A stretch of DNA of 64,000 bases, taken from assembly GCA_934635045.1 (NCBI GenBank), contig CAKTZA010000008.1:17788-81787 (forward strand), read 5' to 3'. Each line of letters opens with the position of its first letter. Positions within the stretch are counted from its first letter, which is position 1. The notes below the pieces were generated by a model. The model was not told where the DNA came from, searched no databases, and saw only the letters and a list, made by a program, of their open reading frames with translations. This document shows positions 13,045-42,266 of the stretch, piece after piece. The DNA is from an uncultured Kiritimatiellota bacterium. GTDB taxonomy: Bacteria > Verrucomicrobiota > Kiritimatiellia > RFP12 > UBA1067. The translations under genes and the position numbers were made by a program.

Positions 13045-13618
13045 GCGTTCGACCGGATCTGTCCGCGACGGCAATTGGATCGCCTCGCTGGAACTCGACG
13101 GCGTCGAGCGGATTGTCGTGGGGACAGGCCCCGGCTCGTTCGCCGGCATCCGGGCGGCCCTTGCCTTTGCGCAGGGGTTCGCCTTGGGGCGTCCCTGCGA
13201 GGTCTTGGGGCTGCCGTCGCCCTGCGCAATCGCCGCCCAGCTGGGCGGAAAGGGGCCGCTCGCCGTCATTGGCGATGCGCGGCGCGGCAAGCTTTGGATT
13301 TCGCTATTTGACGGTTTTTCGCTTGTTCGCGACATTTTTCAAATCGATTCGGGCGTTTCTGTGGGGCCTGTCCCCACAATTTCGGGGTCTGTCCCCAGGG
13401 ATTTGTCTGAAGTTCTGGTGGGGTCTGTCCCCACGGATTGTCGGGTTGTGACGCCGGACGAGGCGCGCATCGGCGCGATGCTGAAGGCGGCGTTTGGTGC
13501 GCGCTACCTTGGGGGACAGACCCCGACGGCTGAAGGGCTGAGGGCTTTTGCCGAGGCGAATCCGTCGCTCCTGACGCCGGAGCCCCGGCCGATCTACCTG
13601 AATCCGGCTGTCCGCTAA
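13013..13618 (+). CDS. tsaB: tRNA threonylcarbamoyladenosine biosynthesis protein TsaB (YeaZ family)
   Basis: GTGPGSFAGIRAALAFAQGFALGRPCEVLGL typical of TsaB. Start is TTG 13013 or ATG 13025. Contains an in-frame repeat array at 13363..13442. Confidence 0.65.
   Translation: MNSTMKTLYLERSTGSVRDGNWIASLELDGVERIVVGTGPGSFAGIRAALAFAQGFALGRPCEVLGLPSPCAIAAQLGGKGPLAVIGDARRGKLWISLFDGFSLVRDIFQIDSGVSVGPVPTISGSVPRDLSEVLVGSVPTDCRVVTPDEARIGAMLKAAFGARYLGGQTPTAEGLRAFAEANPSLLTPEPRPIYLNPAVR
13363..13442 (+). repeat. Array A: three GGGGYCTGTCCCC 13-mers with 8-33 bp spacers, in frame inside tsaB
   Basis: ggggcctgtcccc at 13363, ggggtctgtcccc at 13384 and 13430. Translated as GPVP/GSVP. A fourth inverted unit ggggacagacccc lies at 13512..13524. 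Confidence 0.85.
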
Positions 13619-13640
13619 TTTGCTATAATACGCACTACCT

Positions 13641-15359
13641 ATGAACGAATCAGACACGTCTCGTCACTTCCTCAGGCAGTGGATCGAAAAGGACGTCGCC
13701 GACGGCAAGACCGGCGGCAAGGTCGTCACGCGCTTCCCGCCTGAGCCCAACGGCTACATCCACATCGGCCACGCGAAGGCCGTGTGCGTCGATTTCGGCA
13801 TGGCGCAGCTCTTCGGCGGCGAGTGCCACCTGCGGCTGGACGACACGAACCCGACGAAGGAGTCCGACGAGTACGCCGAGAACATCAAGCGCGACATCAA
13901 CTGGCTCGGCTTCCAGTGGAGCGGCCCCGGCGACGCGGGCGAGCCCGGCTTCTACAACGCCTCGAACATGTTCGACACGATGTTCGCGATCGCCGAGGAG
14001 CTGATCCGGCGCGGGCAGGCCTACTGCTGCAACCTGACGCAGGAGGAGTGGAAGGCGTATCGCGGCGTCCCGGAACGGCCGGGCACGCCCTCGCCCTCGC
14101 GCGACACCGACCCGGCGCGGAACCTCCGGATCTTCCACGAGATGCGCGACGGCAAGTACGCTGACGGCGAATGGTGCCTGCGCGCGAAGATCGACATGGC
14201 CTCGCCGAACATCCATTTCCGCGACCCGGTCCTCTACCGCATCCGCCACGTCGCGCACTACCACCTCGGCGACAAGTGGTGCGTCTACCCGATGTACGAC
14301 TTTGCGCATCCGATCGAGGACGCGCTGGAGGGCGTCACGCACTCGATGTGCACGCTGGAGTTCGAGGTGCACCGTCCGCTCTACGACTGGGTCGTCGACC
14401 GCATGGACGAGCAGGGGCTTCTGCCGGTGCGCAACGGCGTCAAGATCCGCACGCAGCAGCGCGAGTTCGCGCGTCTCAACCTCACGTACACGGTGATGTC
14501 GAAGCGCCTCCTGCTCCAGATGGTGCAGGACGGGCGCGTCAACGGCTGGGACGACCCCCGCATGCCGACGGTGTGCGGGATGCGCCGGCGCGGCTACACG
14601 CCGGGGGCGATCCGCGAGTTCTGCGACCGCATCGGCGTCTCGAAGGTCGAGAGCGAGTCGGATCCCGCGCTCCTCGAATGGTGCGTGCGCGAGGAGCTGA
14701 ACCGGACGGCGACGCGCCGCATGGCCGTCCTCGATCCCGTGAAGGTCGTGATCGACAACTGGGAGCCGTCGGCGCGCCGCCTGGTCGAGTTGCCGAACAA
14801 TCCGACGGACGAGACGGCCGGGACGCGGCAGGTCGCGTTCGGAAGGGAGATCTGGATCGACCGTGCGGACTTCATGGAGGTGCCGGAGAAGAAGTTCTTC
14901 CGCATGGCGCCGGGGCAGGAGGTGCGTCTCCGGGGTGCCTGCATCTTCAGGTGCACGGACTGCGTCAAGGACGCGGACGGCGCGGTCGTCGAGATCCACG
15001 GCACGTGGGACGAGGCGTCGTGGGGCGGCAACGCGGCGGACGGCCGCAAGGTGAAGGGGACAATCCACTGGGTCGACTGCGCGACGGGCGTCAAGGCCGA
15101 AGTGCGCCTCTACGACCGCCTCTTCACGGAGAAGGATCCGCTGAAGGACGGCAGCGAGAACTTCCTGAAGTATCTCAACCCCGATTCGCTCAAGGTCGTG
15201 ACGGGCTACGTCGAGCCGGCGCTCGGCGCGGCGCAGGCGAACGAACACTTCCAGTTCGAGCGCACGGGCTACTTCATCGCGGATGCGGTGGACTCGAAGC
15301 CGGGCGCGCCCGTCTTCAACCGCACCTGCACGCTCAAGGACTCCTACAAGCCCGCGTAG
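13641..15359 (+). CDS. glnS: Glutamine--tRNA ligase
   Basis: TRFPPEPNGYIHIGHAKA (HIGH) and VMSKR (KMSKS) class-I motifs. GlnRS-specific N-terminal signature. TGCTATAAT box 11 nt upstream of the ATG. Confidence 0.85.
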   Translation: MNESDTSRHFLRQWIEKDVADGKTGGKVVTRFPPEPNGYIHIGHAKAVCVDFGMAQLFGGECHLRLDDTNPTKESDEYAENIKRDINWLGFQWSGPGDAGEPGFYNASNMFDTMFAIAEELIRRGQAYCCNLTQEEWKAYRGVPERPGTPSPSRDTDPARNLRIFHEMRDGKYADGEWCLRAKIDMASPNIHFRDPVLYRIRHVAHYHLGDKWCVYPMYDFAHPIEDALEGVTHSMCTLEFEVHRPLYDWVVDRMDEQGLLPVRNGVKIRTQQREFARLNLTYTVMSKRLLLQMVQDGRVNGWDDPRMPTVCGMRRRGYTPGAIREFCDRIGVSKVESESDPALLEWCVREELNRTATRRMAVLDPVKVVIDNWEPSARRLVELPNNPTDETAGTRQVAFGREIWIDRADFMEVPEKKFFRMAPGQEVRLRGACIFRCTDCVKDADGAVVEIHGTWDEASWGGNAADGRKVKGTIHWVDCATGVKAEVRLYDRLFTEKDPLKDGSENFLKYLNPDSLKVVTGYVEPALGAAQANEHFQFERTGYFIADAVDSKPGAPVFNRTCTLKDSYKPA

Positions 15360-15374
15360 GCGACGGAGGCGGCG

Positions 15375-16754
15375 ATGCGTCAGATGTCGCTGATCGAGGG
15401 GGCGTTGGCGGACGGCGAGAACGCCGCGCCGGAGCCGTTGGCCGCGCGGATGCGTCCGCGCGACCTGTCGGAGTTCGTCGGCCAGGAGCATCTGGTCGGC
15501 GAAGGCAAGCTGCTGCGGCAAATGATCGAGCGCGACCAGATTCCGTCGATGATCCTCTGGGGGCCGCCCGGCGTCGGCAAGACGACGCTCGCGAACGTGA
15601 TCGCGAACCTGACGAAGGCCGAGTTCGTCAACTACTCGGCCGTGACGAGCGGCATCAAGGAGATCAAGGAAATCATGGCGCGCGCCGAGTCTGGCCGCCG
15701 CGTCGGCATTCGCACCGTCCTCTTCGTGGACGAGATTCACCGCTTCAACAAGGCGCAGCAGGACGCCTTTCTGCCGTTCGTCGAGCAGGGCTCGATCATC
15801 CTCATTGGCGCGACGACGGAGAACCCGAGCTTCGAGGTCAACTCCGCGCTCCTTTCGCGGTGCAAGGTGTTCGTCCTGAAGGGGCTGACCGAAGACGACC
15901 TCGTGCGCCTCCTGCGCCGCGCGCTCACGTCTGAGCGCGGCTTCGGCAAGCTGGACGTGCAGGCGAGCGACGAGACGTTGCGCAAGATCGCGGTCTACGC
16001 GAACGGCGACGCGCGTCACGCGCTCGGCACGCTGGAGACGGCGGTCGCGAACGCGGCGTTCGGGGCGGACGGACGGCCCGCGATTACGGAGGACGTCCTC
16101 TCGCAGGTCGTGAGCCGCAAGGCGCTCCTCTACGACAAGAACGGCGAAGAGCACTACAACATCATTTCGGCCCTGCACAAGTCGATGCGCAACTCCGATC
16201 CGGACGCGGCGGTCTACTGGCTCGCGCGCATGCTGGAGGGCGGGGAGGATCCGCTCTACATCGCGCGGCGGTGCGTCCGCTTCGCGAGCGAGGACGTGGG
16301 GCTCGCCGACCCGAACGCGCTTCTGCTCGCGAACGCCGTCTGGGACGCCTGCCACAATCTCGGCGTGCCGGAATGCAGCGTGCACCTGACGCAGATTGTC
16401 GTCTACCTTGCGCTTGCCCCGAAGTCGAACGCGATGGAGGAGGCGTACAACCGGGCGGCGGCGGACGCGCAGAAGATGATGGCCGAGCCGGTGCCGCTGC
16501 AGATCCGCAATGCGCCGACGCGGCTCATGAAGAGCCTTGACTACGGCAAGGGCTACGTCTACGCGCACGACACGGACGAGAAGATCGCGCGGATGTCATG
16601 TCTGCCCGAGTCGCTGGAGGGGCGGCGCTACTACACGCCGACGGGGCTTGGCCGCGAGGCGAACCTGAAGGCGCGGTTGGAGGCCGTCCGCGCCTGGCGC
16701 GAGGGCCGCACGGACACGCCGCCGTTCGCCTCGCCCGCCTACGCGACGCGCTGA
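15375..16754 (+). CDS. rarA: Replication-associated recombination protein A (AAA+ ATPase RarA/MgsA)
   Basis: ILWGPPGVGKTTLA Walker A, LFVDEIHRFNKAQQD, MgsA C-terminal domain. Confidence 0.85.
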   Translation: MRQMSLIEGALADGENAAPEPLAARMRPRDLSEFVGQEHLVGEGKLLRQMIERDQIPSMILWGPPGVGKTTLANVIANLTKAEFVNYSAVTSGIKEIKEIMARAESGRRVGIRTVLFVDEIHRFNKAQQDAFLPFVEQGSIILIGATTENPSFEVNSALLSRCKVFVLKGLTEDDLVRLLRRALTSERGFGKLDVQASDETLRKIAVYANGDARHALGTLETAVANAAFGADGRPAITEDVLSQVVSRKALLYDKNGEEHYNIISALHKSMRNSDPDAAVYWLARMLEGGEDPLYIARRCVRFASEDVGLADPNALLLANAVWDACHNLGVPECSVHLTQIVVYLALAPKSNAMEEAYNRAAADAQKMMAEPVPLQIRNAPTRLMKSLDYGKGYVYAHDTDEKIARMSCLPESLEGRRYYTPTGLGREANLKARLEAVRAWREGRTDTPPFASPAYATR

Positions 16755-16806
16755 CGGCGGCGGTCGCGGCGAAAACCGCATCCGCGTTTTTGCTATAATA
16801 TCCGCC

Positions 16807-17946
16807 ATGAAGATCAGCAAGTATTCGTTCGGCATCGGCGACCGCTTCGCGCACGAGGGCGTCAACCAGCTCAAGGCGCTCATTGCGGCGGAAAAGAAGT
16901 TCGGCGTGCACTTCACGCCCGTCTGGAACAAGTCCAACCGCGAGCACACGATCATCGGCACCGAGCCGATGTCCACGCGCCAGGAGGCGGACGCGGCGGT
17001 GCGGGCGCTCGGCTATGCGGACGCCTACTTCTGCGACGCCGACCACATCAACATCTCGAACGTCGACAGGTTCCTGGACGCCTGCGACTTCTTCACGCTC
17101 GACGTCGCCGACTACATTGGCAAGGAGGGATCGGTCGCGGAACGCTACGACGGCGCGATCCGCAAGGCCGGCGAGCTCTACCGCTACATTGCCGCGAAGA
17201 AGGGCGCGGAGAACTTCGTGACCGAAGTCTCGATGGACGAGGTCGACCGCGCGCAGACGCCGGAGGAGGTGAAGTACATCCTCACGAAGATCGCCGAGGA
17301 GAAGATTCCCGTGCAGACCTTCGCGCCGAAGTTCACGGGCCGCTTCAACAAGGGCGTCGACTACGTCGGCGACCTCGACCGGTTCGCGCAGGAGTTCGAG
17401 GAGGACCTCAAGGTCATCCGGTGGGCGGTGCAGGAGCTCGGCCTGCCCGACAACCTCAAGCTCTCGATCCACTCCGGCTCCGACAAGTTCTCGATCTACC
17501 CGATCATGGGCCGGCTCATCCGCCAGTACGACATGGGCCTCCACATCAAGACGGCGGGCACGACGTGGCTGGAGGAGATCATCGGCCTCGCGCTCGCCGA
17601 CCCGGCGGCGCTGAAGCTCGCGAAGCGGATCTACCGCGAGGCGCGGGCGCGCAAGGACGAGCTGACCGTGCCCTACGCGACCGTCATCGACGTCGACGAG
17701 GCGAAGCTGCCCGACCCGGACGCCGTGGACGGCTGGAACGCGCAGACGTTCGCGAAGACGCTCCGCCATGACGAGGCCGAGCCGCTCTACAACCCGTCGT
17801 TCCGCCAGCTGATCCACGTGTCCTTCAAGGTCGCGGCGGAGCTGAAGGACGAGTACATTCCCGCGCTCGAGCGCAGCGCCGACGTGATCGGCCGCGAGAT
17901 CGAGGCGAATCTCGGCGACCGCCACATCCGGCGGCTCTTCGCGTGA
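16807..17946 (+). CDS. uxaE: Tagaturonate/fructuronate epimerase UxaE-like protein
   Basis: LSIHSGSDKFSIYP and IKTAGTTWLEE segments resemble the UxaE family from memory. TIM-barrel-like. TGCTATAAT 7 nt before the ATG, so leaderless-type start. Confidence 0.45.
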   Translation: MKISKYSFGIGDRFAHEGVNQLKALIAAEKKFGVHFTPVWNKSNREHTIIGTEPMSTRQEADAAVRALGYADAYFCDADHINISNVDRFLDACDFFTLDVADYIGKEGSVAERYDGAIRKAGELYRYIAAKKGAENFVTEVSMDEVDRAQTPEEVKYILTKIAEEKIPVQTFAPKFTGRFNKGVDYVGDLDRFAQEFEEDLKVIRWAVQELGLPDNLKLSIHSGSDKFSIYPIMGRLIRQYDMGLHIKTAGTTWLEEIIGLALADPAALKLAKRIYREARARKDELTVPYATVIDVDEAKLPDPDAVDGWNAQTFAKTLRHDEAEPLYNPSFRQLIHVSFKVAAELKDEYIPALERSADVIGREIEANLGDRHIRRLFA

Positions 17947-18854
17947 AGCGTCCCGACCCCGAGACGATCGGCGCGCGGATGGACGCCCTGGGGCTCTGGG
18001 ACGTCCTCGTGCCCTACAACTTCGCCGTGAAGCCGCGCGGCACGGTCTTCCCGTACTTCTGCACGGTGCTGAAGGGCGACCAGAAGCCCGTGAAGGCGCG
18101 CCTCCTCATGCTGGAGGGCTGGCAGACCCTGCACGACTTCGTGCGTGTGCGGATGGATCGCAATTTCGGGTTCTATTCGCAGCCGATCGAGTTCCCGCAC
18201 TTCGAGCTCGTCGTGCTGACGGACGGCGCCGTCAAGGTCTTCCGCGACGATGCGGGCTACATGCCGCAGGAAGTCGTCTCGGCGTCGGCGCGCGAACTGG
18301 TCGCGAAGATCCTCTGGGAGGCCTACGGCGTCTTCCTGCGCGTCGAGGGCGACCGCGCGCTGCCGCTCAAGTTCGCGGGCGACCGCGCCGTCTTCGCGCG
18401 CGTCGAGGACGCGCAGGGGCAGTGGTCGGACGTGCCGCTGGCGATTCCCGACCCGCCGCCGCACAAGGAGACGGTCACGCTGCCGAAAGAGCTCATCAAG
18501 TCGGCGCAGGACCTGCCGCTCGTCGCGGCGGACGCGCTGGAGCTCGACTTTAGGATGCTGCCGAACGTCATGACGCAGGAGCCGCGTCCGCGCTGCGTCT
18601 ACGAGCTGGCGGCGGCGGACGGCCAGACGGGCGAGAGGGCGTTCGCGAGCCGCGTGTCGCTCCTGCCCGAGGGCGGGCTGCGCGCGCTCTGGGAGTCGAT
18701 GCCCGTGCAGGTTCTGCACGAGATCGTCCGGCGCGGCAAGGTGCCGGGCGAGATCCGCGTCCGCGCCGGTCGCGTCTTCCGCCTGCTGCGTCCGCTCTGC
18801 CTGGAACTGCCGTTCAAGCTTTCGCTGCACGAGCGGCTCGAATTTTTGGTATAA
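17943..18854 (+). CDS. Hypothetical protein (no recognisable domain)
   Basis: GTGA overlap with uxaE. GC3-rich codon usage consistent with the host. No motif recognised. Confidence 0.4.
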   Translation: MKRPDPETIGARMDALGLWDVLVPYNFAVKPRGTVFPYFCTVLKGDQKPVKARLLMLEGWQTLHDFVRVRMDRNFGFYSQPIEFPHFELVVLTDGAVKVFRDDAGYMPQEVVSASARELVAKILWEAYGVFLRVEGDRALPLKFAGDRAVFARVEDAQGQWSDVPLAIPDPPPHKETVTLPKELIKSAQDLPLVAADALELDFRMLPNVMTQEPRPRCVYELAAADGQTGERAFASRVSLLPEGGLRALWESMPVQVLHEIVRRGKVPGEIRVRAGRVFRLLRPLCLELPFKLSLHERLEFLV

Positions 18855-18855
18855 T
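18850..18855 (+). promoter_or_regulatory. -10 box of TTTTTGGTATAAT promoter for metK (about 75-nt leader)
   Basis: Extended -10 consensus. Leader 18856..18930 is structured and GC-rich. Confidence 0.45.
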
Positions 18856-18930
18856 ATCCGTCACTCATTTCAGTCTGTGACGATTCGGCGGGGTGCCGGA
18901 CGTGTGACGGGCGAGAAAAGTCTACAGGGA

Positions 18931-20133
18931 ATGAAAATGACCAGTAATGAACATTGCCACGTGTTTACGTCGGAGTCCGTTTCGGAGGGGCATCCCGACA
19001 AGGTGGCGGACCAGATTTCCGATGCGATCCTCGACGCGTGCCTCAAGGCCGACAGCCATGCGCATGTCGCCTGCGAGACGGTAGTCGGGCCCGACGTCGT
19101 GATCAACATGGGCGAGATCACCTGCAAGGGGTGGTCGAAGTCCGACGCGCGGGCGATTGCCGCGAAGGTCGTGAAGAAGATCGGCTACGACCGCCCGGAG
19201 GAGCGCTTCAGCTGGAAGACGTTCGACTACATCACGTACCTGCACGAGCAGGCGCCCGACATCGCGCAGGGCGTCAACCGCAAGAGCAAGGCGAAGCAGG
19301 GCGCGGGCGACCAGGGCATGATGTTCGGCTACGCGACGAACGAGACGGTGAACTACATGCCGGCGACGATCGTCTATGCGCACGAGCTCCTGAAGATGTA
19401 CGCGCGCCTGCGCAAGCGCGGCGGCAAGTACTCCTGGCTGCGGCCCGACGCGAAGAGCCAGCTGTCGATCGTCTACGAGGACGGCAAGCCCTCGTGGATC
19501 GACACGGTGGTCATCTCGCACCAGACGACGGAGGCGGGCGCGACGCAGCAGAACTACGCCGAGATCGAGCGCCTGGCGAAGGACTACCTCTCCAAGACGG
19601 GGCTGCTGTCGGAGGACACGAAGTTCTTCGTCAACCCGACGGGGCGGTTCGTCATCGGCGGCCCCTGCGGCGATTCGGGGCTCACGGGGCGCAAGGTCAT
19701 CGTCGACACGTACGGCGGCATGGCGGCGCACGGCGGCGGCGCGTTCTCCGGCAAGGATCCCTCGAAGGTCGATCGCTCGGCCTCCTACTACGCGCGCTAT
19801 GCGGCGAAGAACATCGTCGCGGCCGGCCTGGCGGACCGCTGCCAGATCCAGGTCGCCTACGCGATCGGCATCGACAAGCCCGTCTCCTTCTGCGTGAAGA
19901 CGTTCGGCACGGCGAAGGGGGGCGTGACGGACGCGGCGCTGGAGAAGATGCTCGTGTCCGGCAAGGTCTTCGACTTCCGCCCCGCCGCGCTCATCGACGA
20001 CCTGAAGCTGCTGAAGCCGCAGGGCTGGAGCTACGAGGAGACGGCGGCGTACGGCCACTTCGGGCGGGACATCTTCCCGTGGGAGAAGCTGGACCGGGTC
20101 GCGCCGCTGAAGAAGCTCTTCAAGGTCGCCTAA
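18931..20133 (+). CDS. metK: S-adenosylmethionine synthetase
   Basis: FTSESVSEGHPDKVADQISDAILDA... canonical MetK N-terminus. C-terminal GHFGR motif. ORF extends upstream to 18877 but the MetK homology starts at the MKM at 18931. Confidence 0.85.
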   Translation: MKMTSNEHCHVFTSESVSEGHPDKVADQISDAILDACLKADSHAHVACETVVGPDVVINMGEITCKGWSKSDARAIAAKVVKKIGYDRPEERFSWKTFDYITYLHEQAPDIAQGVNRKSKAKQGAGDQGMMFGYATNETVNYMPATIVYAHELLKMYARLRKRGGKYSWLRPDAKSQLSIVYEDGKPSWIDTVVISHQTTEAGATQQNYAEIERLAKDYLSKTGLLSEDTKFFVNPTGRFVIGGPCGDSGLTGRKVIVDTYGGMAAHGGGAFSGKDPSKVDRSASYYARYAAKNIVAAGLADRCQIQVAYAIGIDKPVSFCVKTFGTAKGGVTDAALEKMLVSGKVFDFRPAALIDDLKLLKPQGWSYEETAAYGHFGRDIFPWEKLDRVAPLKKLFKVA

Positions 20134-20149
20134 GCGGCGAAGCGCGCGG

Positions 20150-20647
20150 ATGCTGGCGACGGGAATCATCCATCACGTCAATTTCCTGGAGATCGTCCGG
20201 CATCCGTGGTTCATGTCCGCGTTCCTGGCGGCGGCGTCCGCGCAGGTGCTGAAGTTCGTCTACTTCTGGTGGCGGACGGGCCGGCCGGATGCGCATGCGT
20301 TCCGCACGGCGGGCGGCATGCCGTCCGTCCATTCGGCGCTCGTCTCGGCCCTGGCCTTTGCGGTCGGGCTCACGGAGGGGTTCGACGCGCCGTACGCGAT
20401 GATCGCCGTCGGGCTGGGGCTGATCGTGCTCGTCGACGCGGCGACGCTCCGGCGCGAGGCGGGCGAGCACGCGAAGCTCATCAACCGCATCGTCTCGCAC
20501 CTGAACAGCGCGAGCGAAGAGGAGCGCATCGAGGCGCGGCGGCTGGAGGAACGCCTCGGCCACCGCCGTCGCGAGGTCGTTGCGGGCGTGCTCTGGGGCA
20601 TGCTGGTTGCGTTTGCCGTGTGCGCGGTCTGGGATTTCTGGAAATGA
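20150..20647 (+). CDS. Divergent PAP2-family membrane protein (YuiD/DUF212)
   Basis: GGMPSVHSALVSALAFAVG and RREAGEHA motifs typical of the acid-phosphatase/vanadium-haloperoxidase-related DUF212 family. Confidence 0.6.
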   Translation: MLATGIIHHVNFLEIVRHPWFMSAFLAAASAQVLKFVYFWWRTGRPDAHAFRTAGGMPSVHSALVSALAFAVGLTEGFDAPYAMIAVGLGLIVLVDAATLRREAGEHAKLINRIVSHLNSASEEERIEARRLEERLGHRRREVVAGVLWGMLVAFAVCAVWDFWK

Positions 20648-20648
20648 C

Positions 20649-21788
20649 ATGAAACGCATCGTCCATTACCTTCTGTTGGCGGCGATCCTCGTCGGGCTGC
20701 CGCTGGCCTGTTGCCTCATGGGCGGGTATGACGAGATTCTCGCGGGCGTGAAGAGCTTCCCGCCGCGCACGGAAGACTTCGGCTTGCACCCCGAAAAGCT
20801 TTGGAACTACCGGCGTCCGTTCAACTGGTGCTGGTTCCTCGGCATGGCGGCCTTTACCGCCGGCTGCCTGTTCCCGTTCCTGCGTCGCGGGATTCGCGCG
20901 TGCCGTCGGTCGCCGTCGGCGGACGCCCTGCCGCGCGGACGCTTCCCCTGGTGGGGCTGGGCCGGGCTGGCGCTGATGCTGGCCGCCTGGGTCGTGACAT
21001 GGAGCCGTTTCGCGTGGTTTCGCCCGTATCAGGTTCTGCTTTCCTATTTTCCCGTCTGGACGGGCTACATCCTGACGGTGAACGCGCTCTGCGTGTGGCG
21101 GAAGGGGACGTCGCCGCTCACGGCGCATCCGTTCGTCTATCTGCTGACGTTTCCGGCCTCCTCGCTCTTCTGGTGGTTCTTCGAGTACCTCAACCGCTTC
21201 GTCTGGAACTGGTACTACCTCGGCATCGCCGAGCTTTCGGCGGCGACCTACACGCTCTACGCGACGCTCTGCTTCGCCTCCGTCCTGCCGGCCGTCTACG
21301 CGACGGCGGAGTTCCTCGGCACGTTCCGATTCTTCGACGACCGCGTCTACGACGGCATGGCCTGGCGGCCGGATGTGCGCAGCCCCGTCTCGCGGGCCGT
21401 CCTCGCGGCGCTGTCGCTCGTCGGGCTGACGGGCATCGTCTTCTTCCCCGACTGCGCCTATCCGCTCCTGTGGATCTCGCCGCTGATGGTCTTCGTCCTC
21501 GTTCAGGTGATGCTGGGCGAGCGTTGCCTTCTGGATCGGCTGAAGACGGGCGCCTGGGGGCTCGTCTTCCGCTTTGCGGTGGCCGCGCTCGTCTGCGGGC
21601 TCTGCTGGGAGACGTGGAACTATTATGCGCTGGCGAAATGGGTCTATGCCGTGCCGTGGGTGCACGGCTGGCAGATCTGGGAGATGCCGCTCATCGGCTT
21701 TGCGGGCTACCTGCCGTTCGGCGTCGAGTGCGCGGCGGTGACCTATTGGATTTACGATGCGTTCGCAATCCGAGATGCGGTCGCCTGA
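20649..21788 (+). CDS. Trp-rich polytopic membrane protein, unknown function
   Basis: About 10 predicted TM helices, many W/Y/F. Starts 1 nt after the upstream stop. No family recognised. Confidence 0.45.
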   Translation: MKRIVHYLLLAAILVGLPLACCLMGGYDEILAGVKSFPPRTEDFGLHPEKLWNYRRPFNWCWFLGMAAFTAGCLFPFLRRGIRACRRSPSADALPRGRFPWWGWAGLALMLAAWVVTWSRFAWFRPYQVLLSYFPVWTGYILTVNALCVWRKGTSPLTAHPFVYLLTFPASSLFWWFFEYLNRFVWNWYYLGIAELSAATYTLYATLCFASVLPAVYATAEFLGTFRFFDDRVYDGMAWRPDVRSPVSRAVLAALSLVGLTGIVFFPDCAYPLLWISPLMVFVLVQVMLGERCLLDRLKTGAWGLVFRFAVAALVCGLCWETWNYYALAKWVYAVPWVHGWQIWEMPLIGFAGYLPFGVECAAVTYWIYDAFAIRDAVA

Positions 21789-22956
21789 CGACGGGGCGGC
21801 CAACCTCTACGTCCACTTCCCGTTCTGTCGGCGCAAGTGCCGCTATTGCGCGCTCTACTCGCGCGTCGGCGTGCCGGCGGCTGCGCGTGACGCCTACGTC
21901 AGGCAGCTGGCGCGCGTCATCTCCGCCTGGGGACAGACCCCCGACTTTAGGGGACAGGCCCCGCGTTTTTTGGGGACAGGCCCCGCGCCCTCCGGGGGAC
22001 AGACCCCGGTCTCGCGGCTGAAAACCATCTATTTCGGTGGTGGTTCGCCCGCACTTTGCGACCTGAGGCCGATCCTCGCGGCGCTTGGGCCACGTCTTTC
22101 TGACGAGACGGAGTTCACGGTCGAGCTGCATCCGCAGGATGTCTCGGACGATCTGCTGAAGATGTTGCGCGACGGCGGCGTCAACCGCATCTCGATGGGT
22201 GTGCAGTCGCTCGATGACGCGACACTCGCGGCGATGGGGCGCGGCTACGCGGTTGCCGAAGCCGCGCGGGCGTTTGCGCACGTGAAACGGCTGTTCGACA
22301 ATGCCGGCATTGACCTCATCGTCGGCTATCCGGGTGACCCGTGCGCAGGCTGGGAGGCGTTGCGCGACTGGGGTCTGAGCCACTGCTCCGTCTATTCGCT
22401 CCAGAACGAGCGTGGGCTGGCGGACGTGCCGGATGACGACTGGGTGCTGGATCGCATCCGCGCAGTTTCGGGATACTTGAATGAAATCGGCCTTGAACGC
22501 TACGAGATCTCGAACTATGCCGTGCCGGGCAAGGAATGCCGCCACAACCTTGCCGTCTGGCGAGGCGAGGATTATTTCGGCCTCGGCGCGGGCGCGTACG
22601 GGCGGCTCGGTCTCCGCCGGACGCGCAACTTCGGGGCCTGTCCCCCGGATAGCGCGGGGCCTGTCCCCAAGGAGGGTGCGGGGCCTGTCCCCAAAAAACG
22701 CGGGGTCTGTCCCCAGCGGTCGGGGGCCTGTCCCCAGGCGGCGGAGGAGACGGTTACGCCCGAACAGGACGCGCTGGAGCGGCGGATCTTTCGGCTGCGT
22801 ACGCGCGAAGGGCTGGACGCGACGGGCTATCCGGCGTGGGGACAGGCCCTCGAAAAATTCTGCAAGACGGGGCTGTTGACGAAAGAAGGGGAGATTTACA
22901 GTCTGACGGCGCGCGGCACGGAAGTTTGTGACTCGATTCTCGCTGAACTCGTCTGA
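21757..22956 (+). CDS. hemW: Radical-SAM heme chaperone HemW (oxygen-independent coproporphyrinogen-III oxidase-like)
   Basis: NLYVHFPFCRRKCRYCALYS (CxxxCxxC radical-SAM site), IYFGGGSPA, HemN C-terminal domain. Interrupted in frame by two repeat arrays (21929..22007 and 22633..22735). Confidence 0.7.
   Translation: MRSQSEMRSPDDGAANLYVHFPFCRRKCRYCALYSRVGVPAAARDAYVRQLARVISAWGQTPDFRGQAPRFLGTGPAPSGGQTPVSRLKTIYFGGGSPALCDLRPILAALGPRLSDETEFTVELHPQDVSDDLLKMLRDGGVNRISMGVQSLDDATLAAMGRGYAVAEAARAFAHVKRLFDNAGIDLIVGYPGDPCAGWEALRDWGLSHCSVYSLQNERGLADVPDDDWVLDRIRAVSGYLNEIGLERYEISNYAVPGKECRHNLAVWRGEDYFGLGAGAYGRLGLRRTRNFGACPPDSAGPVPKEGAGPVPKKRGVCPQRSGACPQAAEETVTPEQDALERRIFRLRTREGLDATGYPAWGQALEKFCKTGLLTKEGEIYSLTARGTEVCDSILAELV
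21929..22007 (+). repeat. Array B: four GGGGACAG(R)CCCC units (inverse orientation of the 13-mer) in frame in the hemW 5' region
   Basis: Units at 21929, 21950, 21972, 21995. Translated as GQTP/GQAP/GTGPAP/GGQTP immediately upstream of the IYFGGGSP motif. Confidence 0.85.
22633..22735 (+). repeat. Array C: five GGGGYCTGTCCCC units with 8-11 bp spacers, in frame in the hemW 3' half
   Basis: Units at 22633, 22656, 22680, 22702, 22723. Translated as GACPP/GPVP/GPVP/GVCPQ/GACPQ. Confidence 0.85.
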
Positions 22957-22989
22957 ACGGCGTCGCGTTTGGCTTGCGCACGATGCGCG

Positions 22990-23883: not shown

Positions 23884-23902
23884 ATCACCCCTTCGGATGC
23901 CA

Positions 23903-29938: not shown

Positions 29939-31108
29939 ATGATGAAGCATCTGTCAGTTGTCCTGTGCGCGGGCGCCCTCGGCCTCGCGGCCGTCGCCGC
30001 GCCGGATCCGGTCGCCGAGGGGTTCGTGGACTGGACGGGGATCACCCAGAAGAGCTACCTCTTCGGGCGGGCGCTCACGCCGAGCGACCTCCGTCAGCGC
30101 ACCGTCGTCTACGTCGTCGTGGACGCCGAGTCGTTCGCCGGGGGAAAGGTCAAGGAGCTCGCGCCGCTCGCGAGCCTGATGCCGCTGCCGCCGTCCCATG
30201 CGACGCAGTGGGAGACCCAGGAGCTGCCGCATGACGGCATCGTCGTCTTCTCGGTGCGCAACGCGGACAGGGGGACGGACGCCAAGACGTTCGCCGAGCG
30301 CTTCCGTCCGCCGAAGGACGCCGAGCAGTCGGAGGCTCAGGTCTATTCGTCCTACGGCCTGCAGATGGTTCCGTTCTACCGGGACGTTGCGCCCGCCGGC
30401 GAGGCGGACCTTGCGGCGGACAAGCTGCCGTTCGTCGCCGTCTACGCGGCGGAGGGGACAGACCCCGTCTACGCGAAGGAGAGGTTTGCGGCGGCCGACC
30501 TGAAGGGCGTGCGCGAGGCGGTCAGGAAGGCGCGCGAGAAGCTGCCGACGGACTGGACGCCGCCGCTGGGCATCCGCGAGCCGCAGTTCTTCAAGCAGGT
30601 CCCGGCGCTGCTCGCGAAGGGCAAGCCGGCGTCGGCGGCCCTGAAGGTCCTCGCGGCGGGCATCAAGTCGAAGAACCCCGACCAGGCGAAGGAGGCGCAG
30701 GTCATGTACGACGCGCTGAACCAGCACTGCAGCGACCTGAAGCTCCGCATCAGCCTCGAATACAGCAGCGCGCCCGCGCGGGCCTACTACGACTTCCAGA
30801 CGCTGATCCGCCTCTACCCGTCCGAGAAGAAGAAGATGCAGGCGATCGACCAGAAGCTCAAGCAGAACAAGGAGCTCGGCTCGCTCGGCAAGATCTTCGA
30901 GAAGCTGATGCTCTGGGGCCGCGACGACTTCGTCTGCAAGAACGCGGGCGAGGCGAAGAAGATCGTGCAGGAGCTGCAGAAGTACAAGAAGACGCTGGAG
31001 GCGCTGGCCAACAGCCAAAACGCCCAGATCCAGGGCGAGGCGATGCTCTTCGCCTCGCAGCTGGATATGCTGATCGAGACCATCCCGATGAAGGTGCCCC
31101 AGAAGTGA
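29939..31108 (+). CDS. Secreted hypothetical protein
   Basis: Signal peptide MMKHLSVVLCAGALGLAAVAA. No recognisable domain. ATGA/GTGA-type overlap with downstream lepB suggests co-transcription. Confidence 0.4.
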   Translation: MMKHLSVVLCAGALGLAAVAAPDPVAEGFVDWTGITQKSYLFGRALTPSDLRQRTVVYVVVDAESFAGGKVKELAPLASLMPLPPSHATQWETQELPHDGIVVFSVRNADRGTDAKTFAERFRPPKDAEQSEAQVYSSYGLQMVPFYRDVAPAGEADLAADKLPFVAVYAAEGTDPVYAKERFAAADLKGVREAVRKAREKLPTDWTPPLGIREPQFFKQVPALLAKGKPASAALKVLAAGIKSKNPDQAKEAQVMYDALNQHCSDLKLRISLEYSSAPARAYYDFQTLIRLYPSEKKKMQAIDQKLKQNKELGSLGKIFEKLMLWGRDDFVCKNAGEAKKIVQELQKYKKTLEALANSQNAQIQGEAMLFASQLDMLIETIPMKVPQK

Positions 31109-34469: not shown

Positions 34470-34477
34470 GACGCAGG

Positions 34478-34580
34478 GTTGCTTTCGCTGAACACGGAGG
34501 GCTCGAAGGAACGGGGGCACGGAGAACCTTTGATAAAACATCTCCGTGTCTCTCCCTCTCCGTCACCTCCGCGTTAAGCG
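34478..34580 (+). repeat. CACGGAG/CTCCGTG long imperfect hairpin element (copy a) downstream of the kinase gene
   Basis: ggttgctttcgctgaacacggagg...cacggag...ctccgtgtctc...cctccgcgttaagcg. Head sequence recurs inverted at 54063..54090. Confidence 0.7.
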
Positions 34581-34609
34581 CCGCAGGCTTTACAAAACAA
34601 AAGGCAGAT

Positions 34610-36486: not shown

Positions 36487-36520
36487 CCAAATGGCATGAC
36501 GGCGCATCAAACTCCATATA

Positions 36521-37111
36521 ATGGATATCTGGACAGAGATCGCCCGAGACCGCGAGCGCGGCGCCCGTCGGCTGGTGGCCGAGTATGGCGACCGCCTGCT
36601 GACGGCGGCGTTCCAGATGACGCAGAACCGGGCGGACGCCGAAGACCTCGTCTTCCGCACGTTTGCCCAGGTCGTCTCGAAGATCGACACCTATGCCGGG
36701 CGCAGTCCGTTCTTCACGTGGGTCTACCGCATTCTCCTCAACTTCCGCCGGATGGACTTGCGGAAGAAAGGCGCGAACGCGCTGGTCTTGACGGACGAGC
36801 TGCCGGAGGACGCGGATCCGACGCCCGATCCGGCGGAAGCCCTGGCGATCCGGGCCTCCGCCGCCGAGGTGCGCGCCGCCGTGGCGGAACTGCCGGAGAC
36901 GTTGCGCACGGCGGTCGTCCTGCGCTATTTCGAGGAGATGGACGTCGCGCAGGTGGCGGACGTCCTGGAGATTTCCGTGAGCGCGGCGAAGGTGCGGCTC
37001 TTTGCCGCGCGTCGGCGGCTGGCGAAACGGCTGGTGCTAACCGACTTCAGGAAATGTGCATCTAACGCAGATGGTGAAGGAAACAGACAGATTGGGCGAA
37101 CGCATCCGTGA
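36521..37111 (+). CDS. ECF (sigma-70 family group 4) RNA polymerase sigma factor
   Basis: Region 2 (DAEDLVFRTFAQVV..FTWVYRILLN) and region 4 HTH (AVVLRYFEEMDVAQVADVLEISVSAAKVRLFAARRRL). Confidence 0.75.
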   Translation: MDIWTEIARDRERGARRLVAEYGDRLLTAAFQMTQNRADAEDLVFRTFAQVVSKIDTYAGRSPFFTWVYRILLNFRRMDLRKKGANALVLTDELPEDADPTPDPAEALAIRASAAEVRAAVAELPETLRTAVVLRYFEEMDVAQVADVLEISVSAAKVRLFAARRRLAKRLVLTDFRKCASNADGEGNRQIGRTHP

Positions 37112-38027: not shown

Positions 38028-38040
38028 CTCCAGAAAGGAC

Positions 38041-39447
38041 ATGCAAATGAAGGGAAGACGCAACATGTTGACGCTCCTGGCCGCCGTCGCGCTGACGGCC
38101 CAGGGCGCGAAGATCGAGCAGGTCATCGTCCGCCAGCAGTGGCCGTGGTCGACGGACGTCAAGGTCGAGTACCGGCTCACGGGGGTGACGGCGCCGGTGG
38201 ACATCGCCGTCACGACGTACAACGGCGACGCGGAGCTGCCGCTGCCCGCCTCGGCCGTCGTCGGCGACCTCTACGGCATCGACGCGGACGGCGTCGGGCA
38301 GTTCGTGATCGACCCGGTTGCCGCGTTCGGCACGGCGAAGGTCGCGCTCGCGAACTTCAAGGTGAAACTCTCGGTCTCCGCCTCGGCGGCGAACGTCGGC
38401 GAGGTCCTCTACAAGATCTTCGACCTGACGGACGGCTCCTGCCGGGACGTGACGCGCGCCGATTTCCTGAACGGCAAGATGGGCACCTACGAGACGAGCT
38501 ATTCCGCCTTTGGCGAAGGCTTTACAACGCCGCTGAGCGATGTTCTCGTCTGGACGGGCGTGACGAACAACCCCGCCTACAAGACGACGCATCTCGTCAT
38601 GCGCAAGATTCCCGCCGGCGACGTGGTTTGGGTGTGCGGTGACGCGGAAGGGACAAAGAGCAATCGCGGCCATCTGCGCGACCGCCAGTACGTCAAGCTC
38701 ACGCAGGACTACTATGTCGGCGTCTTTGAGATGACGGCCTGCCAGTACGGCACGATTTTTGACGGGAGCTTCACCGGCGATGGTGACGGCACGGATCCGA
38801 AGACCGATGTTCAGCGGTTTGTCATCCATGGCAATCCCATCGGCCCCGGACGCGGCGTCGTGACGGGCGAATTCATCGCGTGGCCGACGAACTCCTATCT
38901 CCGAGACGTCATGGCCGACTCGTTTCTGGACAAGCTCCGCAAGAAGACGTCTGTCGAGTTCGACCTTCCGACGGCGGCGGAATGGCAGTTCGCCTGCCGT
39001 GCGGGTTCCGACACGCCGCTCTATAGCGGAAAGGATCAGGGCGAGCGCAACGTGAGCGAGATCGCCTGGTACAACTCGAACGCCGGAGACGCTTCGCACG
39101 TGGTGGGCTGCAAGCCGCCGAACGCCTACGGCCTCTATGACATGCTGGGCAACGTCGCCGAATACGTTCACAACGCCGACACAATTCACGGCAGTCCGAC
39201 GGGCAGCGGAACGGCGGACGATCCCTTTGTCGATCCGGTCGGCTCGAGCGATGCGGAAGCCATTTACAATTCGGGCACGCACAACCAATGGTACATGGGC
39301 GGATCGTGGAAAGAGGATTCGGGAACGTGGCAGGATGTCCGTCAGGCCGGTGCCGTAGGCTGGTACAAGTGGAATCAGGCGGCCAAGCCGTTCATCGGCT
39401 TCCGCGTGGTCTGCCCGGCGGCTTCTGCGCAGTGGGCGCAACACTGA
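38041..39447 (+). CDS. Secreted protein with C-terminal formylglycine-generating-enzyme (FGE/SUMF1)-sulfatase domain
   Basis: Signal peptide. C-terminal FGE hallmarks AWYNSNAG, YGLYDMLGNVAEYV, GGSW, GFRVVC. Confidence 0.6.
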   Translation: MQMKGRRNMLTLLAAVALTAQGAKIEQVIVRQQWPWSTDVKVEYRLTGVTAPVDIAVTTYNGDAELPLPASAVVGDLYGIDADGVGQFVIDPVAAFGTAKVALANFKVKLSVSASAANVGEVLYKIFDLTDGSCRDVTRADFLNGKMGTYETSYSAFGEGFTTPLSDVLVWTGVTNNPAYKTTHLVMRKIPAGDVVWVCGDAEGTKSNRGHLRDRQYVKLTQDYYVGVFEMTACQYGTIFDGSFTGDGDGTDPKTDVQRFVIHGNPIGPGRGVVTGEFIAWPTNSYLRDVMADSFLDKLRKKTSVEFDLPTAAEWQFACRAGSDTPLYSGKDQGERNVSEIAWYNSNAGDASHVVGCKPPNAYGLYDMLGNVAEYVHNADTIHGSPTGSGTADDPFVDPVGSSDAEAIYNSGTHNQWYMGGSWKEDSGTWQDVRQAGAVGWYKWNQAAKPFIGFRVVCPAASAQWAQH

Positions 39448-39469
39448 TCGCGATTCGTGGATTCGTTAA

Positions 39470-41947
39470 ATGGAAAGACATCTGATTCTTGCCGCAGCGG
39501 TTGTTGCTGCGGCATTCTCGTCCTTGGCGGAAAGGCCGTCCGTCGACAAGACGGGACTTGAAAAGACGGCATGGGTGCAGCTCAATCCGTGGTTTCCGAT
39601 TGACATGGCGCCCAAATACGACCTTGGCGGACCTAACACGCCGTACCGTCCGTATCGGGGCACGAACAGCTGGCAGGAGGTCTTGCAGACGGTCGCCGCT
39701 TACGGCATCGACGGCGTCTTGCCTGAAGTGAACATTCCTGGCGGACACCCCGTGGTCTACCGCACGCTGCTCGATCAGGCGGCATCCGTTGCGCGGCCGA
39801 TGCGCGTCGGGCTGTTTTGCGGATTCTACGGCAAGACGCCGGACGAGTCGGCGGCCGGTGCCGTGCGCGTGTTCCGTCCGTTTCGGGAAGATTTCAAAGC
39901 GAATCCGCACGTCGCACGTGCAGGGACGCGGCCGATTGTCCTCATCTACAATCCGCTTCAGTACGGGCCGGACGACTGGTCGCGCATATTCGCGGCGATG
40001 GAACGCGAATTGGGCCCGATGTGCTTTCTGATGAGCTATTCGCAGCTGACCGCTTACGTGGGGCCGGAGAAGCTGGAGGCGAAGCTGCGCGAATATCTGC
40101 CGTCCTTTGACGGCGTCAGTGCCTACAACTTCAGCATGGACGGCATTCAGGTTCAGCGCAAGGAGGTCGAGATCGTCACGCGCGTCATGCGCGACTTCCC
40201 ACACAAGCTCTTCGAGGGCGGCATCTTCTCGACCCATACGCAGCATTTCAACATGGCGGGGCTTGAGGTCCACCTTTCGCGCGACTGGCGCGAAAGCGTA
40301 AGGCTGTGGCTGGCGGCGAACCCGGATGCGGTCGAGATCACCAACCTTTTCGACCACTACGAGAACTCGCTCGTCTATCCGTGCTACGAACGGGAAGACC
40401 TGCTGCTGCGCTATCTCCAGTACGAGCTGTGCCGCTGGCGCGGCGAGACGTTCGCGGCGTATGCGACGCCTGAACTGGTCCTGTGCAACCAGACGTCCGC
40501 GCTGATCGGCTGGACGCGGCTTGACTACGAGGTTCTCGGCTTTCCGCTCGCCGCGCCGGAGAAAGAGGTGCGCGTCTCGGTGGAACTGTGCACGACAGGC
40601 GGCGACGTCCTGAAGACGCTCGGCCCCGAGAAGATGACGTTGGACGCCTTTCGCGAGGTGCAGTTTTCCGTGCCGTCCACCGAACTGAAAGACGAGCGAG
40701 GCGTGGTGCCGCGCCTAGTGTACGAATGGAAGGACGAGACGCATCGGCTGGCGCACAGCCCGATGACGCTGCTGTCGCCTTCCCTGCGTCCGAACCGTAT
40801 GTACTGGGCGCGTTCGACGCGCAACGCGGCGCGTGTCGAGGGAAGCGGCAAGTGGGCGATCGACGGCATTCGCGCCGGCGGGACGCGGCAGCCGCGTCGC
40901 GGCGGGCAGGGCGTCGTGACGGCGGCTTTCAGGACGCGCGGCGACTATCTGCGGCACGGCATCCGGCGAGACGGCAGCGAGGAGCTGTTCCTGTCCAACG
41001 CCAACTGCCAGTGGCAGTCCCAGTTCGCGCTGCCGTTCATGCCGCCTGGCGAGGCACTGCACTGGTACAACCTGGAGATCCAGGATCAGGACGGACGCAC
41101 GTTCACGACCTTGCCGATCTGGGAGGCGGACGGCAACCGCGCCGCCAAGGTTCCCATGCCGATTTTGTGGGAGGACGGCGCGGTCGTCCCCTGCGACATC
41201 GAGGGCGCGCGCGTGCCGTTCTTCTACTGGCCCTGCGACCGGGACGATGGACAGGTCGTGGTCGACGTCTCCGGCTACGCGCACAATGCGCGGCTTGACG
41301 GAAGCGGCTATGGCGGCGGCCATCTGGGCTGGACGGGGTACAACCACGCGCACAACGGCCCCGTCGGAATCGTCAAGGGGTGGCGCAGTCCGTTCCGCAC
41401 GGATGCGGACGGGCGCGGCTATCTGCAGCTGAAGGGCGAGCATTACATTGTCGCGATGGGCGGCACGGCGATGCCGGGCGCGAGCACCTACGAGCTGTCC
41501 GTGCGGCCGCAGAGCCGGGGACGGCGCATGGGGCTCCTGTGCGGCACCTGGGGGAGCGTCGTGCTGACGCTGGCGCCGGACGGCCGACTCTGCGTGGCGC
41601 GGCGCAGCGACCAGCGGCTGTTCAAGACTGATACGGAGATCTGGTCGCAGCAGGCGATTCCGACGAATGTCTGGACGCATGTCGGCGTGACGTATGACCT
41701 TGAGAACATGCGCCTCTTTGTCGACGGCGCGCTTCAGGGCGTGGCGCGCGTCTCGCCGAACCGCTTCGACAAGTCGTGGGGCAGCGAGGACATGAACTAC
41801 TGCTCGCATGAGTTCAACAACGAGCTGTTCATTGGCGCGGAGGACGACCGCCTGAAGCCAGTCAATCTCTTTGATGGCGATGTCCGCGAAATCCGGGTCT
41901 ACGGCCGGAACCTGTCGCCGACAGAGTTCCTGCTTCATGATTCGTGA
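39470..41947 (+). CDS. Secreted 825-aa protein with C-terminal LamG/concanavalin-like lectin domain
   Basis: Signal peptide. C-terminal ...WTHVGVTYDLENMRLFVDGA...LFDGDVREIRVYGRNLSPTEF typical of the LamG_3 family. N-terminal region possibly a glycoside-hydrolase-like TIM barrel (uncertain). Confidence 0.5.
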   Translation: MERHLILAAAVVAAAFSSLAERPSVDKTGLEKTAWVQLNPWFPIDMAPKYDLGGPNTPYRPYRGTNSWQEVLQTVAAYGIDGVLPEVNIPGGHPVVYRTLLDQAASVARPMRVGLFCGFYGKTPDESAAGAVRVFRPFREDFKANPHVARAGTRPIVLIYNPLQYGPDDWSRIFAAMERELGPMCFLMSYSQLTAYVGPEKLEAKLREYLPSFDGVSAYNFSMDGIQVQRKEVEIVTRVMRDFPHKLFEGGIFSTHTQHFNMAGLEVHLSRDWRESVRLWLAANPDAVEITNLFDHYENSLVYPCYEREDLLLRYLQYELCRWRGETFAAYATPELVLCNQTSALIGWTRLDYEVLGFPLAAPEKEVRVSVELCTTGGDVLKTLGPEKMTLDAFREVQFSVPSTELKDERGVVPRLVYEWKDETHRLAHSPMTLLSPSLRPNRMYWARSTRNAARVEGSGKWAIDGIRAGGTRQPRRGGQGVVTAAFRTRGDYLRHGIRRDGSEELFLSNANCQWQSQFALPFMPPGEALHWYNLEIQDQDGRTFTTLPIWEADGNRAAKVPMPILWEDGAVVPCDIEGARVPFFYWPCDRDDGQVVVDVSGYAHNARLDGSGYGGGHLGWTGYNHAHNGPVGIVKGWRSPFRTDADGRGYLQLKGEHYIVAMGGTAMPGASTYELSVRPQSRGRRMGLLCGTWGSVVLTLAPDGRLCVARRSDQRLFKTDTEIWSQQAIPTNVWTHVGVTYDLENMRLFVDGALQGVARVSPNRFDKSWGSEDMNYCSHEFNNELFIGAEDDRLKPVNLFDGDVREIRVYGRNLSPTEFLLHDS

Positions 41948-42012
41948 CGCAAAGAACGCGAAGGTCTTAGCGGACTTTGCATGAAAAGCCTTCGCGACCA
42001 ACGAGTGAATGG

Positions 42013-42112
42013 CTCACACGGAGTGACGGAGCCACGGAGTTCCTGTACGATATCGCGATAGGTGACGCCGACTTTGTTCGCTTTCCCTCCGTGCCTCCGA
42101 CTCTCCGTGTGA
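42013..42112 (+). repeat. CACGGAG/CTCCGTG long hairpin element (copy b) downstream of the LamG gene
   Basis: ctcacacggagtgacggagccacggag ... ctccgtgcctccgactctccgtgtgag. Arms nearly identical to copy c at 49001..49079. Confidence 0.7.
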
Positions 42113-42185
42113 GACCCTGCCTCACGCAGAGACGCAGAGGCCGCAGAGGCGTCTGGCGAATCTCTGCGCCCCCTTTGGGGTTGCG

Positions 42186-42266
42186 GGGGCCTGTCCCCAG
42201 GGGTTGCGGGGGCCTGTCCCTAGGGGTTGCGGGGCCTGTCCCCAGGGGTTGCGGGGGCCTGTCCCC
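42186..42266 (+). repeat. Array D: four GGGGCCTGTCCC(C/T) units with constant 10-bp spacer AGGGGTTGCG, intergenic
   Basis: Units at 42186, 42209 (CCCT variant), 42231, 42254. 23-bp periodicity. Confidence 0.85.

Follow-up and report, generated by a model that had tools for sequence, protein, structure and literature searches.

Why does one short sequence recur, letter for letter, inside essential genes of a bacterium? In a stretch of 64 kb from an uncultured Kiritimatiellota bacterium (contig CAKTZA010000008.1; hereafter the window), the 13-mer GGGGYCTGTCCCC or its complement was present in 19 exact copies, against a mean of 0.01 expected from dinucleotide-preserving shuffles, and two further copies had one mismatch each (12/13). 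It was the most frequent 13-mer of the window, and the pattern GGGG-N5-CCCC carrying other loops was essentially absent there; the loop is thus specific, and the excess does not stem from base composition. The copies showed no orientation bias, fell into about 8 separate loci, and lay in coding sequence in 16 of the 19 cases. A sequence-only reading of this DNA had reported arrays of the motif inside tsaB, twice inside hemW and at one intergenic junction, all of which were found where it had placed them, and the frequency that it left to be weighed against base composition proved far above chance. Its list of copies lacked an exact unit at 13120 (tsaB) and a 12/13 copy at 22838 (hemW, in WGQAL), the largest spacer was 23 bp instead of 33 bp, and the intergenic spacers, described as a constant 10 bp, were uneven and adjoined one imperfect unit (Table 1).

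The unit, also written YGGGGYCTGTCCCCR (with GGGGACAGAGCCC as a near-cognate), is a minimal hairpin with a G/C stem of 4-5 bp and a fixed YCTGT loop. Its folding energy was -3.5 kcal/mol, and -7.2 kcal/mol with AAAT/ATTT flanks. Flank frequencies across array loci extended the unit to Y-GGGGYCTGTCCCC-R, with Y at -1 and R at +13 lengthening the stem. Of the arrays, only that of tsaB stood out in folding against shuffled sequences, as did the units taken singly; the hemW and intergenic arrays as wholes folded no better than shuffles (z = -0.14 and +1.43). Almost no half-sites of the motif occurred outside full units in the window, and the spacers between array units there were 8-11 bp, with one exception of 23 bp. 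Translation of the 13-mer in six frames gave no stop codon, and G-x-x-P in every frame (GACP/GVCP, GPVP/GSVP, GLS(P), GDRP, GTGP/GTDP, and GQA/T(P)).

Table 1. Positions in the window of the 13-bp units, singly and in arrays, and of two genes that carry them
Feature	Position (nt)	Strand	Details
SBP gene (family-5 solute-binding protein), single exact unit	11997..12009	-	On conserved E-G-T-G-P-Y; not an insertion
tsaB, YeaZ-like (PF00814), host gene	13025..13618	+	Pfam match
tsaB, single exact unit (GGGGACAGGCCCC)	13120..13132	-	On universal TsaB motif V-G-T-G-P-G-S-F; not an insertion
tsaB, three-unit array of GGGGYCTGTCCCC	13363..13432	+	Units at 13363, 13384, 13420; spacers 8 and 23 bp
tsaB, single exact unit	13512..13524	-	On conserved G-G-Q-T-P; not an insertion
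hemW-like radical SAM gene, host gene	21757..22956	+	PF04055 plus weak HemN_C match
hemW site 1, four units	21929..22007	-	Units at 21929, 21950, 21972, 21995; spacers 8, 9, 10 bp
hemW site 2, five units	22633..22735	+	Units at 22633, 22656, 22680, 22702, 22723; spacers 10, 11, 9, 8 bp
hemW, 12/13 copy (GGGGACAGGCCCT)	22838..22850	-	On W-G-Q-A-L, conserved in hemW clade
Secreted-protein gene, single exact unit	30454..30466	-	On E-G-T-D-P-V-Y; not an insertion
Intergenic four-unit array, 23-bp period (GGGGTTGCG(G)GGGGCCTGTCCCCA)	42177..42267	+	Units at 42186, 42209 (GGGGCCTGTCCCT, one mismatch), 42231, 42254; spacers 10, 9, 10 bp

The arrays inside genes are translated. That of tsaB encodes VGPVPTISGSVPRDLSEVLVGSVP, and its last unit overlies an ancestral G-S-V-P, the codons of which match the motif at 12 of 13 positions in the array-less locus L121, at the point where the array ends here. 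TsaB proteins 92-100% identical to that of the window were 197, 201 or 204 residues long, and array-less orthologues 174-186 residues. In hemW, site 1 encodes WGQTPDFRGQAPRFLGTGPAPSGGQTP, its periods of 21, 22 and 23 bp adding up to 66 bp so that the reading frame is restored, and site 2 encodes GACPPDSAGPVPKEGAGPVPKKRGVCPQRSGACPQ. The two sites form an inverted repeat with 88% identity over 87 bp, spacers included (e.g. AAAAAACGC), about 620 bp apart. Among HemW orthologues (an alignment of 60-97% identity) the same two loops held 0-5 units, read by lineage as GQTP, GTDP, GACPQ/GVCP, GTGP, GSVP/GPVP or GLSP as frame and orientation changed, and a third loop held units in two sequences; more distant HemW orthologues had no arrays at either loop. 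In the AlphaFold model, the array-encoded residues 61-84 and 293-327 of HemW had pLDDT below 50 and no secondary structure, and lay between well-predicted elements. The arrays of tsaB and hemW are thus lineage-specific additions in variable loops, as had been proposed from the sequence, since distant orthologues are without them and close ones vary in copy number. Likewise, translation in frame, in several frames and in both orientations, was borne out (GPVP, GSVP, GQTP, GQAP, GTGP, GACP and GVCP). Because the same HemW loops are read in different frames and orientations of one 13-mer, and because an intergenic array exists, the 13-mer is a DNA-level element and not a protein repeat. Third-position GC was 0.73, 0.78 and 0.82 in the unit-bearing genes at 13025-13618, 21757-22956 and 11539-13044, respectively, versus a window norm of about 0.9 or more.

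Copy number differed between close strains. Locus L119, syntenic with nt 2996-23618 of the window at 98.9% identity, showed five indels, one of which was a whole 21-bp unit, GGGGTCTGTCCCCACGGATGA, of the tsaB array that is present in L119, missing here and bounded by identical 13-mers; two others were ordinary tandem duplications of 8 and 21 bp. In L117 (99.2% identity), the middle part of the tsaB array differed from that in the window. The window and L119, strains about 99% identical, thus differ in that array by exactly one 21-bp unit. Copy density was about 0.3 per kb here versus 0 in 35 kb of the UBA1629 assembly, a genome that has arrays elsewhere. Unrelated to the 13-mer, the SBP gene contains an in-frame 21-bp tandem duplication at 12061-12102 (GNGEEGM twice) that is shared by the window and L117 and not found in the 98.9%-identical L119, and an 8-bp tandem duplication at 5552-5567 (GGGGGAAG twice) is polymorphic with respect to L117 and L119.

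The element was not confined to this lineage. A scan for pairs of units separated by 7-12 bp, in which each species was represented by one genome and the taxon list is a sample and not a census, gave at least 111 array loci from at least 63 genomes. Among the matches listed were Kiritimatiellia, Lentisphaerae, Verrucomicrobia and Phycisphaera, the planctomycete isolates Stieleria magnilauensis, S. sedimenti and Rhodopirellula sp. SM50, and also a Pseudoduganella isolate, Thauera, Methylobacter, Myxococcales, Acidobacteriota, Coriobacteriales, Acidimicrobiales, Treponema and a Kaiserbacteria genome. Some array contigs, including those of Treponema, had 33-42% GC. Some bins may be contaminated; the cross-phylum spread is real, given the isolates and the AT-rich contigs. 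Tandem arrays of as many as 4-20 units occurred, with spacers often identical within an array and different between arrays, the 13-mer itself staying perfect. Inverted unit pairs were observed in Pseudoduganella, the unit of which is AAATGGGGTCTGTCCCCATTT, and upstream of a gene in Rhodopirellula (L036, see below); the arrays of the window are direct repeats. About 91 of 100 arrays in other genomes appeared extragenic and about 9 of 100 lay in supported reading frames, figures from a crude and conservative third-position GC test that are to be read as mostly extragenic; heavy colonisation of genes is therefore a trait of this lineage. No neighbouring gene was shared, as all-against-all clustering of the open reading frames of the 111 loci gave only ABC ATPases, histidine kinases and translations of the arrays. 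A phage origin was rejected, no arrays being found in 2.9 million viral contigs. The 13-mer was not found in the literature searched, in which 11-mers matched only unrelated primers.

A link to transposases came from the array-bearing loci themselves, which were searched for Y1/HUH genes with E. coli RayT as the query and then with a profile. Two such genes were found among the loci listed, in L003 (Kaiserbacteria) and L036 (Rhodopirellula sp. SM50), and both abut the exact motif. The L003 protein matched PF01797 (E = 1.7e-17), its best NCBIfam match being REP_Tyr_transpos, the tyrosine transposase associated with repetitive extragenic palindromic (REP) sequences ('REP-associated tyrosine transposase', RAYT), and contained the motifs NHWH and YIERNP; its stop codon is followed after 30 bp by two exact units, and a GGGGTCTG half-site precedes its start by 50 bp. 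The L036 protein (366 residues, encoded at nt 4293-5393 of that locus) aligned to the RAYT alignment with an hhalign probability of 96.7%; it possessed the HUH motif NHFH, the Tyr motif YVDLNL and an insertion of about 50 aa, and was closer to subclass 2.3. Four exact units, one of them inverted, were located 170 bp upstream of it and five copies of GGGGACAGACCCT 330 bp downstream. Proteins of the TIRYT branch (subclass 2.1) have a C-terminal helix-turn-helix (DnaA_C-like) and the HUH/Y motifs NH[VYF]H and YIELNP/Y[IV]HLNP.

Relatives of the L003 gene carried variants of the 13-mer, so that the link to RAYTs holds at the level of the motif family. The core GKGWCWG stood inverted on both flanks in 51 of the 62 relatives with both flanks available, versus 0 of 45 shifted control positions. 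Its variants (GTGTCAG, GGGACAG and GGGTCAG) often lay within hairpins such as AAATGGTGTCAGGTACCATTT, plainly resembling the Pseudoduganella unit, and short tandem arrays of half-sites were frequent in these flanks. The same inverted arrangement of the core was found on plasmids of Iodobacter, P. aeruginosa and Skermanella, around homologues sharing about 30% identity. At L127, L130, L150, L206 and other RAYT flanks, tandem half-sites often end exactly at GGGGWCAG, e.g. (ataattGGGGTCAG)x3, which hints that the enzyme may cut inside the loop after CAG. On its complement strand the motif has GGGGACAG as its left half, which fits the core GGGG[AT][CG]A[CG] (GGGGWSAS) of the inverted repeats, sometimes clustered, that flank the 'TIRYT' genes of Di Nocera et al. 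(PMC3733652). Quentin et al. entered TIRYT as TnpA_REP subclass 2.1 with 'no REP' (PMC6006769), and Bertels et al. found the widest distribution for the group 1 RAYTs, together with only a weak association with frequent 16-mers (PMC5581495). A conserved unit of 13 bp with variable spacers would escape a 16-mer test, and the repeat was probably overlooked because REPIN detection relied on 16-mers, which are longer than its conserved part.

Taken together, the 13-mer is best read, with a probability of about 0.58, as a REP-like hairpin element of a RAYT family ('TIRYT', TnpA_REP subclass 2.1-like, Bertels group 1), with local amplification by slippage and with selection leaving only in-frame loops. 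The genome would encode, at another place, a single-copy RAYT-like protein that would recognise the folded hairpin on single-stranded DNA and would cut and rejoin beside or within it, thereby seeding copies at new or near-cognate sites. Where two or more units came to be adjacent, the perfect 13-bp direct repeats would permit replication slippage or unequal exchange, by which whole units (13-mer plus spacer, about 21-23 bp) would be gained and lost. As the 13-mer has no stop in six frames and always gives G-x-x-P, selection would leave intragenic arrays that are in frame and in surface loops. The 'mobile or recombinogenic miniature element' of the sequence-only reading remains the best description of the arrays, but it is wrong for the single copies; the protein-binding site offered there as an alternative is compatible with a mobile element, the likely binder being the transposase itself.

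Several observations weigh against the RAYT reading. Neither the 64 kb of the window nor some 130 kb of sequence from close relatives contained a Y1/RAYT gene, so that the transposase link rests on other phyla, from which we infer the transposition step in this organism. The exact 13-mer was not found near any of the 80 metagenomic genes most closely related to that of L003, variants being found instead. Identity of the 13-mer across phyla would be odd if RAYT and repeat co-diverge, and no GTAG or CGTC 5' tag appeared in the flank frequencies of the units. Classical REPINs are inverted doublets and extragenic, whereas the units here form direct tandem arrays and are mostly coding. Finally, exact single copies on conserved codons without an indel are unexplained by copy-and-paste.

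These single copies, four in number (at 11997, 13120, 13512 and 30454), all lie on conserved peptides and showed no indel relative to orthologues. Those in the SBP gene, in tsaB at 13512 and in the secreted-protein gene had been taken for insertions, a claim that did not hold, the peptides GTGPY, GTGPGSF, GGQTP and GT[ED]P being conserved and indel-free. At 30454, where orthologues mostly have G-T-E-P, a D for E completes the motif here. The codons used are rare (ACA, 3% of Thr codons; GGG, 18% of Gly codons), and the chance of the codon choice at the 13120 unit was 3.7e-4. Among the motif-compatible peptide sites in genes of the window, 16 of 17 had the exact motif, against 0.024 expected from codon usage, and copy-poor relatives matched the motif at 12 of 13 positions at the singleton sites. 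Two explanations fit these copies: selection may act on the DNA motif itself, or the process may be drawn to near-cognate sequences and convert them. Such a conversion could proceed by addition of a unit beside the look-alike, the old copy then being lost by slippage.

The first of these explanations belongs to the rival that survives best, in which the 13-mer is a genome-wide functional signal to which some conserved protein would bind (e.g. uptake-like, Chi-like or nucleoid-organising), and which is maintained either by selection or by a drive from biased uptake or repair. Copies would appear mainly in place, through point mutation where the peptide permits it, with arrays as by-products of slippage. 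The excess of exact motifs at compatible sites, including the four conserved, indel-free sites with rare codons, the D at 30454, the 12/13 matches at the same sites in copy-poor relatives and the lack of orientation bias all favour it. It is nevertheless considered unlikely, since uptake and Chi signals differ from lineage to lineage, unlike the 13-mer with its one sequence in many phyla, tandem arrays of 4-20 units are foreign to such signals, the motif occurs on both sides of RAYT-like genes, and close relatives differ greatly in copy density (none in the 35 kb of UBA1629). Under the RAYT reading, a bolder proposal is put forward tentatively: the TIRYT/group-1 RAYTs would have a REP partner after all, the cross-phylum 13-bp hairpin, and the system would also home to and overwrite near-cognates (GTGP, GQTP and GT[ED]P, once with a change of E to D), arrays growing from such seeds.

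A less probable view dispenses with a dedicated enzyme and regards the arrays as ordinary slippage-prone repeats grown from look-alike coding sequence (GSVP, GQTP, GTGP). The tsaB array does abut the ancestral G-S-V-P run that is 12/13 in array-less L121, and other tandem repeats (8 bp and 21 bp), besides the 13-mer unit, are among the indels that separate near-identical strains. However, this view gives no reason why AT-rich genomes and unrelated phyla should share the exact 13-mer, and it is largely refuted on that ground; independent assemblies and isolates counter an assembly artefact as the source of the shared sequence. Moreover, spacers diverge while the 13-mer stays perfect, no ancestral seed for either hemW site exists in distant orthologues, and the separate loci are numerous within 64 kb.

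Protein-level selection for flexible Gly/Pro linkers, or ancestral low-complexity loops, would account for G-x-x-P in every frame and for arrays in unstructured loops, but is refuted by frame diversity, the peptides varying while the DNA is constant; the intergenic array, the mostly extragenic arrays elsewhere and the lack of the segments in distant orthologues make it highly improbable. Equally remote is a CRISPR-like or iteron-like array for defence or for replication and partition. The constancy of the repeats, the shortness of the spacers and the period of about two helical turns (near 21-23 bp) would suit it. CRISPRs, however, combine cas genes with repeats of 24-48 bp and with spacers that are unique and about as long as the repeats; here the repeat is 13 bp, the spacers of 8-11 bp recur, often identical within an array, the arrays sit within essential genes, and there was no Rfam match and no cas, rep or par gene nearby. 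The sequence-only reading had likewise rejected CRISPR. Tn3- or IS6-type terminal repeats, excision footprints, CsrA-type RNA sponges, G-quadruplexes and centromere-like iterons were also considered and set aside, having few shared bases or failing on the intragenic, two-orientation or cross-phylum facts.

The intergenic array lies in a region of about 1.8 kb (41950-43790) that is mostly non-coding and repeat-rich, with tandem repeats of CACGAATCTG, AATTCGTGAA and ATCCTGTAA, three copies each, in addition to the 13-mer array; open reading frames within it had no Pfam match. Scans of the window with Rfam and for tRNAs gave three tRNAs and no match at the arrays. A second repeat family, found only between genes (42010-42112, 49003-49080, 34493-34548 and 54039-54070), consists of long imperfect hairpins of octamer arrays, TCACACGGAG-N-CACGGAG-N-CACGGAG ... 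CTCCGTG-N-CTCCGTG-N-CTCCGTGTGAG, each directly downstream of a large gene and REPIN- or terminator-like in appearance. Next to hemW, a membrane-protein gene (20649-21788) separates it from a DUF212 gene here and in L119; in L112 and L114 the gene is missing and its neighbours are adjacent. On L118, a Hadza gut Kiritimatiellota contig about 85% identical across SBP-tsaB, nt 16866-20502 encode a Phage_F capsid protein and a REP_ORF2-G2P replication initiator of Microviridae type, possibly from an integrated microvirus.

If the RAYT reading is correct, a REP-type element would be mainly intragenic in one lineage of gut Kiritimatiellota, where it would make strain-variable loops in essential enzymes, and the largest and most widespread RAYT branch would have its cognate repeat. 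The exact copies on conserved codons raise the question of whether such elements spread by insertion only or also by conversion of look-alikes. If conversion does occur, the result would be a sequence-specific drive, remodelling coding sequence and equipping essential proteins with in-frame G-x-x-P loops. For practical purposes, the arrays serve as strain markers, and they introduce length heterogeneity into metagenomic orthologue alignments.

Comparison with known systems places the element closest to REP/RAYT. Miniature inverted-repeat transposable elements are 70-300 bp long, with terminal inverted repeats of 15-30 bp and target-site duplications; this class was rejected, no longer conserved element being found around the 13-mer and the flanks being unrelated between loci. 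STAR-type intergenic arrays are, like those of the 13-mer, short GC-rich direct repeats with short spacers, but they are species-specific and intergenic, and are not known to have a hairpin or a transposase link. HIP1 of cyanobacteria and the DNA uptake sequences (DUS/USS) are also exact short motifs far above expectation at codon-compatible places in genes; unlike the 13-mer, they are lineage-specific, form no tandem arrays and are not known to flank a transposase gene. Rickettsia palindromic elements, to which the sequence-only reading had likened the arrays, are palindromic repeats in frame within functional genes, tolerated as extra surface-loop peptides, and remain a fair functional analogy for in-frame units in unstructured loops; they are however single, about 100-150 bp long and confined to Rickettsia, whereas the unit here is 13 bp, its arrays are 70-103 bp and it extends over many phyla, so that it is not itself such an element. 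With REP/RAYT, the 13-mer shares a short, high-copy hairpin repeat with a G/C stem, the published core, many genomes with multiple arrays, the exact motif flanking the RAYT-like genes of L003 and L036, and relatives with an inverted core on both flanks and small clusters. Intragenic, in-frame REPs have also been described, most numerous in the verrucomicrobium Opitutus terrae (PMC3733652), which makes the earlier statement that such behaviour is not known for this kind of GC-rich genome overstated. It differs from typical REPs, which form inverted doublets and are predominantly extragenic, in its conserved unit of 13 bp without a GTAG/CGTC tag, repeated directly at spacings of 8-11 bp and mostly within genes, and in that the literature gives no REP partner for the TIRYT branch and the available DNA of this organism contains no RAYT. 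What sets the element apart is its identity across phyla, its intragenic tandem arrays and its exact copies on conserved codons.

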